Shown in pieces: positions 15,054-61,747 of a stretch of 64,000 bases of DNA (position 1 is the stretch's first letter; every line of letters starts with the position of its first letter). The stretch is from the NCBI GenBank assembly GCA_000146465.1, contig CP001949.1; one strand, 5' to 3'. A model generated the notes under the pieces. That model was given only the letters and a program-made list of their open reading frames with translations. It was not told where the DNA came from and made no database searches. Position numbers and translations under genes: made by a program.

Positions 15054-15125
15054 TTCCTCGTCCGGGAATCGAACCCGAGCCTGCTGCGTGAGAGGCAGCT
15101 ATCCTAACCACTGGACCAACAAGGA
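15054..15125 (-). tRNA. tRNA-Glu (anticodon CUC)
   Basis: Manual cloverleaf fold: acceptor TCCTTGT/ACGAGGA, D-stem GTCC/GGAT, anticodon stem GCTGC/GCAGC with loop CTCTCAC, T-arm TCGGG-TTCGATT-CCCGG; no intron. Confidence 0.85.
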
Positions 15126-26183: not shown

Positions 26184-26297
26184 CAAAATCTTACACCTGA
26201 AGAAAGGCAGAAATAAATGAAGTAAAGCACACTTTAGTTATTTAAATGCCTTCTAGACCCAAAGGGATAAACAAATCCGGCTTTTCGATTTCCTTAG

Positions 26298-26498
26298 CTA
26301 CTCCGGGCCAACAAATGGCTTTATTTGCGACATGTACACACAGGCCCATGCAATGTATCCAAATGCTAAAGCGCCGATCAGACCGATTCTCACTTCGTCC
26401 TTGTTTCTGGTGGATTTCCCTCTTGTCAACACCACTATGGCGGTAGACACCATAAGTATGAAAGCAATAGAGCACAGAAGAATAGAAGCGTCTGCCAT
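26298..26498 (-). CDS. V-type ATPase V0 subunit e (Vma9-like) small membrane protein
   Basis: 66 aa with two TM helices, ending ...QIKPFVGPE like the Vma9 ...QLHPLVAPR. Confidence 0.4.
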   Translation of the reverse strand: MADASILLCSIAFILMVSTAIVVLTRGKSTRNKDEVRIGLIGALAFGYIAWACVYMSQIKPFVGPE

Positions 26499-26816
26499 CT
26501 ATGTGTCAAGGGCTAGTTTTGAAACAATAAATGCTTTACTAGAATCACATATTGAAGTCTAAATATATCAAAGGCTTTTCTAGGCTTAAGGCCAAGAGGA
26601 TCTGTATTTCAACTCAGAGGTTTGTGGTTCTTTGGGAATTCAAATCCTAGTTGAAGTATGATGGGGAATAGGATGTTTTTCTTGGCTTGAATTCTTTTGT
26701 GAAGAACCAGAAGAAGAATATGGATGATAATTCGATGTATTCCTAGAGCTTGTTCCAAGGATATCAGACAGACAAAACTCCAGGGAAGGATAAAGTTTGA
26801 GATTATCTCCCCCGGA

Positions 26817-32075: not shown

Positions 32076-32161
32076 GGGCTTCCCAAAAATGGTTTATAAA
32101 AACACCGGAAGTTGGGCAAAAATAGAAAATGGAGGCCTGTCCAACAAATAAAATTTAATAA

Positions 32162-32557
32162 TCATTGCGATATCTTGAGTTTAGCCTCCTGAACTTCTTC
32201 TAAATACTCATTGTCGCTGATGGGCTTTGCCTCCCAAGAAATCTTCAAACGCTCACTGGAAGAAACAAACGGAATAACGTGAAAGTGTACATGCGAGACG
32301 GATTGGTGGTTTCCGTTATTTTGGAGAATATTATACTTCTCAAGCCCAAACTTTTTCACAAGATGTCCAATGACTCCAAGCACGTCGGACAATTCCTCGG
32401 GGCGGCATTGGTGAAAGTACGGGTGGTGTGCCTTTGGAATCACAAGGAAATGTCCCTTTGATAAAGGATACCTGTCCATCAGTACAAAGGATGTGTCGGT
32501 CTCATAAATGATGTTGGCGTCTTTCTGGTAAAGTGTGCAGAATATGCATTCTTCCAT
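32162..32557 (-). CDS. HIT-family (histidine triad) nucleotide hydrolase
   Basis: HVHFHVIP histidine triad; CIFC N-terminus; the ATG at 32557 is preceded by CCCC, whereas the maximal ORF (to 32725) runs antisense through the divergent neighbour. Confidence 0.7.
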
Positions 32558-32619
32558 TTGGGGAGTGTTCTCAGGAACCCAAATTATCATCATTATTTTC
32601 AAAGTAAAAAACACCCAGA
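32558..32619. promoter_or_regulatory. 62-bp bidirectional spacer between the HIT (-) and Trm4 (+) genes, carrying a C-run before each start codon
   Basis: CCCC..ATG on the minus strand (ATG at 32557) and CACCCAGA ATG on the plus strand (ATG at 32620). Confidence 0.4.
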
Positions 32620-46700: not shown

Positions 46701-46973
46701 TCACAAGTTTTGCTGGAGTTCCATTTCACCTTTCTCTGGCTTACTGAGAATTTCTATATCCATAACAAAATCTCCCCTGGCCATCACCAGCCCCAAGACT
46801 CTACGTCTAGGCTCTTTGCTACCTCTTGCATTCCGGAATTCCTCGCTGTCATCAAGAACTACATTTACATCCTCGTCAACAGATAGCATGGTTCCCTCCA
46901 TCCATCTCCCATCCTTCATTTTAACCTTTACTCTATAGTTCACGTACTTTCCCAAACTCAGACCCATGGGCAA
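46701..46973 (-). CDS. Sm core protein, SmB-like
   Basis: Sm1 YRVKVKMKDGRWMEGTMLSVDEDVNVVLDDSEEFR and Sm2 RRVLGLVMARGDFVMDIEI; compare the SmB EFRK....EKRVLGLVLLRGENLVS. Confidence 0.6.
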   Translation of the reverse strand: MPMGLSLGKYVNYRVKVKMKDGRWMEGTMLSVDEDVNVVLDDSEEFRNARGSKEPRRRVLGLVMARGDFVMDIEILSKPEKGEMELQQNL

Positions 46974-47003: not shown

Positions 47004-48695
47004 TCACATTTTATTCAAAGGTGTAGCTCCAAGGATTTTTAGTCCGTTATGAAGAACGATCCTTGCAGAAGACAGAACAAGGAGTCGAGCTCTGGCAAGT
47101 TCCTTCTCCACACCTAGAACCTTTAGGCTATTGATTGCGACATTGACGCAGCTAGCAAGATCTTGAAGATATGTGACGATTCTCGAAGGCTCGTAGTCGT
47201 CCAGACACTTTTCAACAGCATGCTCAAACCACAGGAGCTTGTAGACAAGATTGAAAACCTCTGGAACATGAATAAGGCTAAAGTCGATCGTGTTGATATC
47301 GCTGTAGTCAACATCGCTGTTCCTGGATTCGATGCTCTTCAGTCTGCAATGAGCATACTGCAAGTACGGCCCTGTTCCAGAGGTGTTTCTTGCCCTCTTT
47401 TCAATGTCAAACTCATATCCCTTAACTCTTCTAGCAGTAAAATCCATTACTAGAAGTGTTGATATGGCAAGGACTTCGGCAGTCTGGTCAATCTCGTCCA
47501 TTGTAAACGAGTTCTTGGTACTATCCGACATCATGACCTTCTTCATGACACTTGTAGATTCTTGGATTATGTCCTCGAGGAATTGGGCCTTTCCGGCTCT
47601 TGTAGACATCCCAGCAACCAATCCGTAGCTTACATGCAAGAATTTGCTTTCGTCGTGCCCAAGAATCCCAAGAATCTTGAAGAGATCTTCAAAGTGTTTG
47701 TTCTGCTCGGTCGACACAACGTAGATGATCTTTTCAGGAGAATATTTCTCAAGTCTTTCAATTGCGGCAGCAATATCTCTTGTTATGTAGAGTGTCGTTC
47801 CATCGTTCTTCATCACAAGTACCTTTCTGTTTTTTCCAAGATCAAATACCTTGGACCCGTCCTCATCTGTCTTGACTTCCTTATACGCCTCAACTATCTC
47901 TTTCCCCTTTTTGTTGTACAGGCTTTCTCCGGAATAGACATCGAATCTCACATTCAATCTTTCATAGAGACTCTTGTATTTTTCAACACTCAGCTCCCGG
48001 AATCTTTTCCAGAGATTCATGCACCATTCGTCGTTTTCCTCCTCCATCTTCCTGAAGATCTCTCTGGCCTCCAGATCAACTTCTGGGTTTTCCTTTGCAT
48101 CGGCGCTTATCTTCACATAGACATTGAACAGATGCTTGAGAGGGTCTTTCTCCAGCTCCTCTTCACTTCCATACTTACTGTATCCAAGGAGTACAAAGCC
48201 AAATTGTTTTCCCCAATCTCCAAAGTAGTTCATACTGACTGTCTCGTATCCAGATGCCTTCAGTAAGTTTACGATAAACTGGCCTAATATTGTTGTTCTC
48301 AGATGTCCTATGTGGAAAATCTTTGCAATGTTGGGGCTACTGTATTCCACCACCATTCGTTTGCCTTTTCCAATGCTATTGTTTCCAAATGTCTCCTTGT
48401 TACTTTGGATATAACCAAGAACATCCTTGAGTATTGCCTTCTTGTTAATGTCAAAGCACACCGAAGGTCCTCTTATGGCCAGGTTTTGAATCAGCTCGAT
48501 GCTTGCCTTTTCAAGCGCTTCATGAAGCTCCTTAGCATCTTCCTGTGGAGAGGACGATATTTTAATGAGGAAAAGAGTAACATTTGGCTTCTTTGGCTGG
48601 CAGGACTTTTCCATACATCTCTCGATTTCCTCTGGACTGAACTTTGAGACATTGGATACTTGTTCCACAACTTTTTTAAAAAGCTCGTTAAACAT
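47004..48695 (-). CDS. arginyl-tRNA synthetase
   Basis: VEYSSPNIAKIFHIGHLRTT (HIGH) and a KMSKS-equivalent GMSTRAGK; C-terminal DALR anticodon-binding-like region. Confidence 0.85.
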   Translation of the reverse strand: MFNELFKKVVEQVSNVSKFSPEEIERCMEKSCQPKKPNVTLFLIKISSSPQEDAKELHEALEKASIELIQNLAIRGPSVCFDINKKAILKDVLGYIQSNKETFGNNSIGKGKRMVVEYSSPNIAKIFHIGHLRTTILGQFIVNLLKASGYETVSMNYFGDWGKQFGFVLLGYSKYGSEEELEKDPLKHLFNVYVKISADAKENPEVDLEAREIFRKMEEENDEWCMNLWKRFRELSVEKYKSLYERLNVRFDVYSGESLYNKKGKEIVEAYKEVKTDEDGSKVFDLGKNRKVLVMKNDGTTLYITRDIAAAIERLEKYSPEKIIYVVSTEQNKHFEDLFKILGILGHDESKFLHVSYGLVAGMSTRAGKAQFLEDIIQESTSVMKKVMMSDSTKNSFTMDEIDQTAEVLAISTLLVMDFTARRVKGYEFDIEKRARNTSGTGPYLQYAHCRLKSIESRNSDVDYSDINTIDFSLIHVPEVFNLVYKLLWFEHAVEKCLDDYEPSRIVTYLQDLASCVNVAINSLKVLGVEKELARARLLVLSSARIVLHNGLKILGATPLNKM

Positions 48696-48772
48696 TTTGA
48701 AGGGTATATTCCTTCTGCTGGTTTTGCAGGGATGAAAAGGCTCTCAAAGCAAAGGAAAGAAAAAAGCATTAG

Positions 48773-48780
48773 AAAAAAAA
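48773..48780 (-). terminator. oligo(T) Pol III terminator of U6 (A8 on the + strand)
   Basis: T8 run directly 3' of the U6 body on the minus strand. Confidence 0.6.
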
Positions 48781-48892
48781 GCCGAATCTACATCCGGCAA
48801 CCTCTCAAGTTATACATGTCGTCCTTACGCAGGGGCCATGCTAATCTTCTCTGTGTTGTTCCAAATCAATGGCGGTAGAAAACTACAACCCT
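48776..48892 (-). ncRNA. U6 spliceosomal snRNA
   Basis: Minus strand reads ..GAUUUGGAACAACACAGAGAAGAUUAGCAUGGCCCCUGCGUAAGGACGACAUG...GGAUGUAGAUUCGGCUUUUUUUU; contains the invariant ACAGAGA box, the AGC triad and GAUUAGCAUGGCCCCUGCG almost identical to human/yeast U6; a 5' stem-loop GUAGUUUUCUAC precedes it and U8 follows. Confidence 0.75.
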
Positions 48893-48899
48893 TCCCTGC

Positions 48900-48916
48900 G
48901 AGATTTTTTTTATCCA
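48900..48916 (-). promoter_or_regulatory. A-rich TATA-like element about 10-25 nt upstream of the U6 start (minus strand GGATAAAAAAAAATCTC)
   Basis: Position and composition only. Confidence 0.3.
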
Positions 48917-49202
48917 TTCAGTTTCCTCCCGTATTAATTAAGCGGCCATGTGTTTGGTGGATTTTTGTTCGGAGGCCGAAAGCAAAAAAAGAATTGGTAT
49001 GGAAAATAGGAGACGTGGCAAATTTCATTGGTAACTAGGTCATTAAAAGTTTCGGCCTGTCACATCACAAAGGGAGAAAGATGAAACAGGAAGCAGGCGA
49101 TTTTAGATTATGGGTTGAGAATGTTGTTTCAAGAACAGTATCCAAAGCAGGTATAAACGAGGTGTCTCTTCCAGACTCTGAATCAAAGATCTATGTGTTC
49201 CG

Positions 49203-49967
49203 ATGGACGGAAGGGTTTTATTCAATGTATCGGACCTTGCAGATATATTCAGGTGTTTTGGAACTTTTGTGAGTTCTTCTCAGATACATGAGTATATGGA
49301 GTCTGCCGGATATATAGAAAGGTTGGAGCAGCTCAAAGATTTCTTTGGAAAAGACTGTCTGGAGGTGGTATGCAGCAGTGTATTGAACAGCAAGCTTCTT
49401 GAACGTATAGAGTCTTCTGCAGATGGCGGAAAAGGATCCGGGCATCTGGATGATACAAGGATAGAATTCACCGGGTCCAAGTTCTCTTTTGGAGAATACA
49501 AGTTTGAGAGCCAGAAAGAAGATCAAGATCTTGACAGATTCCGTAATGTAAACGAACTATACCCTTTTAATTGTCAATGGACCGATAACATCATGGATGG
49601 AATACTTAAGAACATATATACAAGCGACGGAAAGAAGGCTGAAGACGGCTGCATGAAGAAAGGGTCCGACGTTGTAAGAGCAGGGAGTAGAGGAAGACAT
49701 ATGAAAGTCTCGGGAAGCCTAAAGGATCGCCCGTTTGTGTGTACATACAACGATTGTAAGAGAGCCTTCAAGAGATATGAGCATTTGAAGCGCCATAACC
49801 TGATGCATACTGGAGAAAGACCTCATAAATGCAGATTCCCCGGGTGCTCCAAAGCCTTTTCCAGATCAGACAACCTGTCCCAGCACTATAAAGTTCATAC
49901 CACAACAAGTGAGATACATGCCAAGAGCTATGAATCCTATAGATACTTGAATAAAGAGTTTAACTAG
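49203..49967 (+). CDS. C2H2 zinc-finger transcription factor (Sp/KLF-like fingers)
   Basis: FVCTYNDCKRAFKRYEHLKRHNLMHTGERPHKCRFPGCSKAFSRSDNLSQHYKVH, i.e. C2H2 fingers joined by a TGERP linker. Confidence 0.7.
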   Translation: MDGRVLFNVSDLADIFRCFGTFVSSSQIHEYMESAGYIERLEQLKDFFGKDCLEVVCSSVLNSKLLERIESSADGGKGSGHLDDTRIEFTGSKFSFGEYKFESQKEDQDLDRFRNVNELYPFNCQWTDNIMDGILKNIYTSDGKKAEDGCMKKGSDVVRAGSRGRHMKVSGSLKDRPFVCTYNDCKRAFKRYEHLKRHNLMHTGERPHKCRFPGCSKAFSRSDNLSQHYKVHTTTSEIHAKSYESYRYLNKEFN

Positions 49968-50408: not shown

Positions 50409-50479
50409 TAAGGCTATCCAGAGGCGAGATTTATCTTTCCACTCTCTTTCAGAGAAGGAAGCAATGGCAATAAGGGCCA

Positions 50480-50551
50480 GGGTTCGTAGCTCAGAGGTAG
50501 AGCAATTGATTGCAGATCAATCGGTCACAGGTTCGATTCCTGTCGGGCCCT
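50480..50551 (+). tRNA. tRNA-Cys (anticodon GCA)
   Basis: Manual cloverleaf fold: acceptor GGGTTCG/CGGGCCC (two G-U pairs), D-stem GCTC/GAGC, anticodon stem ATTGA/TCAAT with loop TTGCAGA, T-arm ACAGG-TTCGATT-CCTGT; no intron. Confidence 0.85.
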
Positions 50552-50588
50552 TTCCTTTTCTCAAAACTCTTTTTTTGCTCTTATCCAT

Positions 50589-61674: not shown

Positions 61675-61747
61675 CACCCTGAGCGGGACTCGAACCCGCA
61701 ATCTTCTGCTTAGAAGGCAGACGCGTTAGCCATTACGCCATCAGGGC
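61675..61747 (-). tRNA. tRNA-Arg (anticodon UCU)
   Basis: Manual cloverleaf fold: acceptor GCCCTGA/TCAGGGT, D-stem GCGT/ACGC, anticodon stem TCTGC/GCAGA with loop CTTCTAA, T-arm GCGGG-TTCGAGT-CCCGC; no intron. Confidence 0.85.

Follow-up and report, generated by a model that had tools for sequence, protein, structure and literature searches.

The splicing system of Encephalitozoon has been described as among the simplest that are complete. In E. cuniculi, 37 introns remain, along with about 35 proteins of the spliceosome (PMC4829280), and a working U6 spliceosomal snRNA is therefore expected. In the same species the U6-specific factor Prp24/SART3 is missing and the LSm set is reduced (PMC4829280, Table 1). 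U6 is known to pair with U4 and to be released by Brr2; its internal stem-loop (ISL) and the U2/U6 helices form thereafter. The ACAGAGA box binds the 5' splice site by pairing, and the catalytic metals are coordinated by the AGC triad together with the ISL bulge (PMC5855946). The non-coding RNAs (ncRNAs) of the genus were catalogued by Belkorchia et al. in 2017 (DNA Res 24:251, PMC5499648). That study counts 18 ncRNAs, U6 included, in E. cuniculi, E. intestinalis, E. hellem and E. romaleae, with RACE validation of the E. cuniculi ones, and indicates that Rfam 12 already listed U6 for one or more of these genomes. It describes a TATA-like signal at all Encephalitozoon ncRNA genes and a CCC/GGG motif at the start of all E. 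cuniculi transcripts. These signals are common to the Pol II (mRNA) genes of Encephalitozoon, from which shared factors were suggested. It further reports that A and B boxes are absent in E. cuniculi, and that an 'unexpected additional stem' lies near the 3' end of Encephalitozoon U4 and U6. The U6 gene of E. intestinalis, its promoter signals and its extra 3' stem are thus already known for the genus. The annotation pipeline applied to E. intestinalis (Prodigal, RNAmmer and tRNAscan-SE) predicts proteins, rRNA and tRNA only (PMC12697097), which makes it plausible that U6 is unannotated in GenBank records, as an earlier sequence-only reading of this DNA had proposed; the gene is probably missing from the public E. 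intestinalis records.

The window, i.e. the whole 64-kb stretch of DNA that was analysed, has a GC content of about 41%. An Rfam scan of it returned a single U6 match, in the spacer between the arginyl-tRNA synthetase (ArgRS) and zinc-finger genes. The U6 model RF00026 aligned to positions 48775-48890 of the minus strand with 66.5 bits (gathering score 44, E 1.4e-14), and the match covers model positions 1-105 of 105, i.e. the full length. The sequence-only reading had placed here a minus-strand U6 core, preceded by a 5' hairpin and followed by eight U residues, and had called for a covariance-model search, which bears it out. The 27-nt core ACAGAGAAGATTAGCATGGCCCCTGCG is present exactly and only once in the window (48828-48854, minus strand), the hairpin precedes it at 48871-48890, and the gene closes with a T8 run. 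Such a score together with an exact 27-nt core rules out a chance origin of the match. Around it, the minus strand reads ...GGATAAAAAAAATCTCGCAGGGAAG and, directly after, GGTTGTAGTTTTCTACCGCCATTGATTTGGAACAACACAGAGAAGATTAGCATGGCCCCTGCGTAAGGACGACATGTATAACTTGAGAGGTTGCCGGATGTAGATTCGGCTTTTTTTTCT... Each of the three flanking proteins matches an entry of Encephalitozoon intestinalis ATCC 50506 exactly. The locus is almost certainly the U6 snRNA gene of this strain, on the minus strand. Its ends are placed by the model alignment and the T-run, the 5' end at about 48890 and the 3' end in the T8 run (48773-48780). None of the catalytic sequence elements of U6 is missing: the 5' stem-loop, the ACAGAGA box, the AGC triad and the ISL are all present, and ACAGAGA and AGC are at their canonical spacing. 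The coordinates of all features are collected in the table.

Features of the U6 locus and other genes of the window. Coordinates are positions in the window; promoter positions are relative to the presumed start.
Feature	Position	Strand	Remarks
tRNA-Glu(CTC)	15054-15125	-	
Sm/LSm-fold ORF	46701-46973	-	just downstream of ArgRS
ArgRS (arginyl-tRNA synthetase), ADM11984.1	47004-48695	-	ATG at 48695
Spacer between U6 terminator and ArgRS ATG	48696-48772	-	77 nt; T6 at 48760-48765; CCC about 10 nt before ATG
U6 snRNA gene	48773-48890	-	5' stem to end of T8 run, 118 nt
T8 run	48773-48780	-	predicted Pol III terminator and source of oligo-U tail; directly after 3' hairpin
Lineage-specific 3' hairpin	48781-48798	-	GCCGGA-UGUAGA-UUCGGC; inserted between helix II and U tail
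Likely U2/U6 helix II segment	48801-48809	-	CUUGAGAGG; UUGAGAG invariant in 11/11 species
Internal stem-loop (ISL), GCGUA pentaloop	48815-48839	-	asymmetric bulge; 3' of AGC triad
AGC catalytic triad	48840-48842	-	invariant in alignment; aligned to Rfam consensus
ACAGAGA box, pairs with 5' splice site	48848-48854	-	read directly; identical in 10/11 aligned species
5' stem-loop	48871-48890	-	GGUUGUAG-UUUU-CUACCGCC; 7 pairs, one U.C mismatch; in minimum-free-energy fold
GGG motif at presumed transcription start	48889-48891	-	2/3 G invariant in 11 species
TATA-like box	48904-48913	-	ATAAAAAAAA; -23 to -14, +1 = 48890
True 5' part of zinc-finger CDS	49081-49202	+	translation gives first 40 residues of UTX45771.1, then frame shifts
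C2H2 zinc-finger protein, ADM11985.1	49203-49967	+	annotated CDS 254 aa
YJU2 (splicing factor), ADM11986.1	49974-50408	-	exact protein match
tRNA-Cys(GCA)	50479-50552	+	
tRNA-Arg(TCT)	61675-61747	-	

The U6 of E. cuniculi, a member of RF00026 (PMC5499648), is likewise flanked by the zinc-finger and ArgRS genes (L001 2812-2916, 66.1 bits). Its sequence between the 5' stem and the end of the helix II segment is identical to that of E. intestinalis, and the two genes share the 3' hairpin, the TATA-like box, the GGG motif and a C in the ISL bulge. A few substitutions are found in the 3' hairpin, which reads GCUGGA...UCCGGC in E. cuniculi versus GCCGGA...UUCGGC in E. intestinalis. The T-run is T4 in the former versus T8 in the latter, and the flanking spacers have diverged. 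Compared with yeast U6, the E. intestinalis gene has the same 5' stem-loop, ACAGAGA, AGC, ISL with a pentaloop and oligo-U end, as well as an upstream TATA and a T-run terminator. It differs from yeast in its extra 3' hairpin, in the C that replaces U80 at the bulge and in a TATA that is nearer to the start.

To compare the locus with its relatives, ArgRS-locus DNA was collected from E. cuniculi, E. hellem, E. romaleae, Ordospora colligata, O. pajunii, three Logan relatives, Nosema granulosis, Vairimorpha bombi and Vittaforma corneae (11 relatives). The V. corneae contig was uninformative, as it ends 98 nt upstream of ArgRS. U6 was found upstream of ArgRS and on the same strand in all ten relatives with a readable region (RF00026, 52.5-66.1 bits). 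The distance from the start of the match to the ArgRS ATG is about 190 nt in Encephalitozoon, Ordospora and two Logan relatives and about 150 nt in the third (L009). The match is more distant from ArgRS in Nosema and Vairimorpha, yet still between the zinc-finger and ArgRS genes. The order zinc finger-U6-ArgRS is kept from Encephalitozoon and Ordospora to N. granulosis and V. bombi. The alignments showed a nearly invariant U6 body with both flanks diverging fast, at a locus where the ArgRS proteins are just 50-86% identical. Conservation of the body amid diverging flanks indicates purifying selection on an RNA gene and not a decaying pseudogene.

Several other features of the neighbourhood were noticed. 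One Logan relative (L008) has kept U6-ArgRS and has a different, unannotated gene upstream. YJU2 adjoins the zinc-finger gene or is one gene beyond it in all ten relatives except L008. Downstream of ArgRS, a gene of the Sm/LSm fold is present in Encephalitozoon, Ordospora and the Logan relatives; it was not called in the Nosema and Vairimorpha loci. The clustering of these splicing-related genes (U6, YJU2, Sm/LSm fold) is probably a coincidence of strong synteny in a compact genome. N. granulosis and V. bombi have a tRNA-Val(TAC) gene on the U6 strand, 199 nt upstream of U6 in the former (L010 1869-1941) and 59 nt upstream in the latter (L012 1512-1584). Its A and B boxes may aid U6 transcription in these two species, an arrangement that is absent in Encephalitozoon.

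The structure of the RNA was examined in an alignment of 11 species. Over the 5' stem-loop, the ISL and the 3' hairpin, 96.8% of cells were paired and 7 pairs vary on both sides, values that none of 500 shuffles reached; all slid registers of the same structure scored far worse, with 28-52% of cells paired. In the 5' stem-loop, 90.8% of cells were paired and 2 pairs vary on both sides, and the ISL, in which all 7 Watson-Crick pairs are invariant, was 100% paired. The single-sequence fold of U6 was no more stable than shuffles (z = -0.79), as is usual for U6. As this z-score is uninformative, the structural argument rests on covariation. In the V. bombi-like metagenome contig (L012 1672-1678), ACUGAGA replaces the otherwise invariant ACAGAGA.

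The bulged nucleotide of the ISL, U80 in yeast, helps to hold a catalytic metal ion. In E. intestinalis its equivalent is a C (48821, minus strand), and the same C was found in 11/11 aligned U6 sequences. A non-consensus bulge region has already been shown for E. cuniculi U6 (PMC4829280, Fig. 5). Since yeast U80C is viable and grows without an obvious defect (PMC5855946), the C is a tolerated lineage variant. Downstream of the ISL, CUUGAGAGG is likely the U2/U6 helix II segment, as judged from its position and its resemblance to the yeast AAAGAGA.

The 3' hairpin, which is the additional stem described in 2017 (PMC5499648), was 100% paired: of its 6 pairs, 5 show compensatory changes on both sides, and the GUAG core of the loop is invariant in the 11 species. 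This alignment indicates that the hairpin is clade-specific and has been kept by compensatory substitutions, which points to selection on RNA structure. The loop UGUAGA repeats the UGUAGU of the 5' arm of the 5' stem-loop. It could alternatively pair with UCUAC at 48875-48879, a pairing that is not kept in V. bombi.

Upstream of the gene, only one element is common to all 11 species, the G.A(T/C)AAA core of the TATA-like box (T in 10/11), which is at a fixed distance from the start; the sequence around the box is not conserved. The TATA of yeast SNR6 and of human U6 is at about -30, and the box of the window, at -23, is nearer to the start. A regular-expression scan of the 11 microsporidian loci for an A block (TRGYNNANNNG) and a B block (GWTCRANNC) found neither in U6 nor up to 600 nt downstream of it, unlike in yeast, and the sole B-box matches were in an upstream tRNA gene or at non-conserved positions. 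Human and plant type 3 Pol III U6 promoters likewise have all their recognisable signals upstream, with TATA as the key conserved element. They differ in having a proximal or upstream sequence element (PSE/USE), for which no equivalent is conserved across the microsporidian clade; upstream of U6 in the aligned loci, no proximal sequence element conserved beyond the genus Encephalitozoon was found. At the level of sequence, the present data reproduce the promoter picture given for E. cuniculi by Belkorchia et al. (PMC5499648) and extend it to more species.

The divergent zinc-finger/U6 spacer also contains a CCACCAAA block at 48953-48960 (-70 to -63) and two CCAAT boxes at 48993-48997 and 49027-49031 (ATTGG on the plus strand), i.e. 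2 in a 190-nt spacer as against 2.2 per kb window-wide. The block and the boxes are kept in 5/5 Encephalitozoon-type sequences and not clearly in Ordospora. They may act for the divergent zinc-finger gene just as well as for U6. The idea of another ncRNA within the 190 nt that precede U6 was rejected: there was no Rfam match, and an inverted repeat TTCGG...CCGAA at about 48966-48980 is not conserved in relatives.

At the other end of the gene, the 3' hairpin runs straight into a T-run in 11/11 species, with three invariant T columns, and in E. intestinalis a T6 backup run lies 8 nt beyond T8. A run of eight is specific to E. intestinalis; the relatives mostly have T4, the Logan relative L009 has T5, O. 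pajunii T3 and V. bombi six. Runs of T3-T5 are weak terminators by yeast standards. From the T-run and the TATA box, we infer that E. intestinalis U6 is transcribed by Pol III. The TATA-like box would bind TBP/TFIIIB and recruit Pol III without A and B boxes, i.e. without TFIIIC. Transcription would begin at the GGG motif and end in the T-run, leaving the oligo-U tail that is needed for La and LSm binding. Given that the TATA-like box is conserved and A and B boxes are absent, the most likely mechanism is that TATA recruits TFIIIB and Pol III directly.

A genuine U6 might instead be made by Pol II or by a simplified shared machinery, and the T-run would then not be a terminator. The TATA-like and GGG/CCC signals are the same as those of Encephalitozoon mRNA genes (PMC5499648), A and B boxes are absent in 11/11 loci, several relatives have no more than T3-T4, and yeast U6 made by Pol II is described as functional (PMC9670810). 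Against this, the T-run is placed directly after the 3' hairpin in every one of the 11 species, and in the window the T6 run adds a second one 8 nt beyond. Yeast TFIIIB recruits Pol III to a TATA without TFIIIC in vitro. Moreover, every eukaryote examined makes U6 by Pol III, and a TATA can specify Pol III for snRNA genes (PMC5855946). It is because T8 is peculiar to E. intestinalis, and TATA and GGG are common with Pol II genes, that transcription by Pol II or shared factors stays as a minor rival; we consider it unlikely, and Pol III transcription remains the preferred reading.

The nature of the gene itself leaves even less room for other explanations. One 64-kb window leaves space for further copies elsewhere in the genome, and the match could be a pseudogene or relic of a working U6 located there. 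However, it covers the full-length model without decay, it is at an orthologous locus where the RNA body is almost invariant against scrambled flanks and an ArgRS of 50-86% identity, the compensatory changes of the 3' hairpin show selection on RNA structure, and the promoter box is conserved. In addition, U6 is one of only 18 ncRNAs in the genus catalogue (PMC5499648). A pseudogene is thus very improbable. The U6atac RNA of the minor spliceosome belongs to the same Rfam clan (CL00009), and a U6atac or a chance match were the remaining candidates. At this site U6 was the best-scoring family of the clan (two lower-scoring, overlapping matches to the same clan somewhere in the window were dropped), and U6atac is without the 5' stem-loop (PMC5855946) that is present here. 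With RF00026 best in its clan, E 1.4e-14 and an exact 27-nt core, both were refuted, and their probability is negligible. The locus is hence best taken as an intact U6 gene.

By analogy with the described spliceosomes, E. intestinalis U6 would pair with U4, be released, and then pair with U2 and the 5' splice site, forming the metal-binding active site that would remove the few dozen introns of the reduced genome. Beyond this, we tentatively put forward a more speculative and rather doubtful idea, that microsporidian U6 is a minimal Pol III unit, in which TATA alone would recruit TFIIIB and Pol III with neither TFIIIC nor SNAPc, combined with a 3' hairpin whose GUAG loop would be a lineage module for protein binding or 3'-end protection, possibly compensating for the missing Prp24/SART3 and the reduced LSm set. 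Both parts of this idea were partly anticipated in the 2017 study, where the TATA-only promoter and the 3' hairpin were both pointed out (PMC5499648). Because the splicing system is so simple, this promoter and the covarying hairpin are reasonable targets for studies of minimal Pol III transcription and of the minimal spliceosome. Otherwise, the significance of the gene is little beyond annotation hygiene: it accounts for an apparent spacer that is among the longest of a very compact chromosome, and its analysis also exposes a zinc-finger frameshift in the ATCC 50506 assembly.

Partners of U6 and other small RNAs were searched for as well. Neither U4 nor U2 had an Rfam match in the 64-kb window at gathering score or at E <= 1, and the permissive scan (E <= 1) added no other ncRNA near U6. 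A search of metagenome contigs for the U4 partner with the predicted U4 5' end GTCCTTACGCANGGG gave at least 120 matches, mostly GC-rich and due to chance. The most U4-like of them, L073 included, had no Rfam match. The window contains three tRNA genes, so U6 is not its sole Pol III gene, and the sequence-only reading was mistaken in calling it the only clear Pol III small-RNA gene.

The annotated gap between ArgRS and the zinc-finger gene (48696-49202) is 507 nt long, about 5.5 times the median spacer of 92 nt on a crude ORF map. This agrees with the gap of roughly 500 bp, about 5-fold longer than usual, described from the sequence alone; the true spacer, however, is shorter. At about 49201/49202 the window reads 'ttccgatgg' where ttcCAGatgg is expected, a 1-nt frameshift because of which the zinc-finger model starts at the internal ATG at 49203. 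Newer E. intestinalis assemblies encode a zinc-finger protein of 295 aa (UTX45771.1), and relatives encode 279-299 aa. With the zinc-finger ATG at 49081, the spacer between the two genes is 385 nt and not 507. Subtracting the 118 nt of U6 leaves 77 + 190 nt, which is unremarkable for tandem and divergent promoters here. Of the 77 nt, only the CC just before the ArgRS ATG is conserved, and it is invariant. The annotated gap, described from the sequence alone as the largest spacer of the window, is among the three largest on the crude ORF map, on which two gaps appear larger, one of them an artefact of ORF filtering. The latter (32076-32619) was rejected as a true gap, as it holds a 187-aa ORF that the greedy ORF filter had dropped. 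The other (26184-26723, about 540 nt on the same map) has no Rfam match and contains small ORFs only, for example a hydrophobic one of 66 aa (26298-26498, minus strand). The frameshift near 49201/49202 is probably an assembly error or a strain indel in the ATCC 50506 record.
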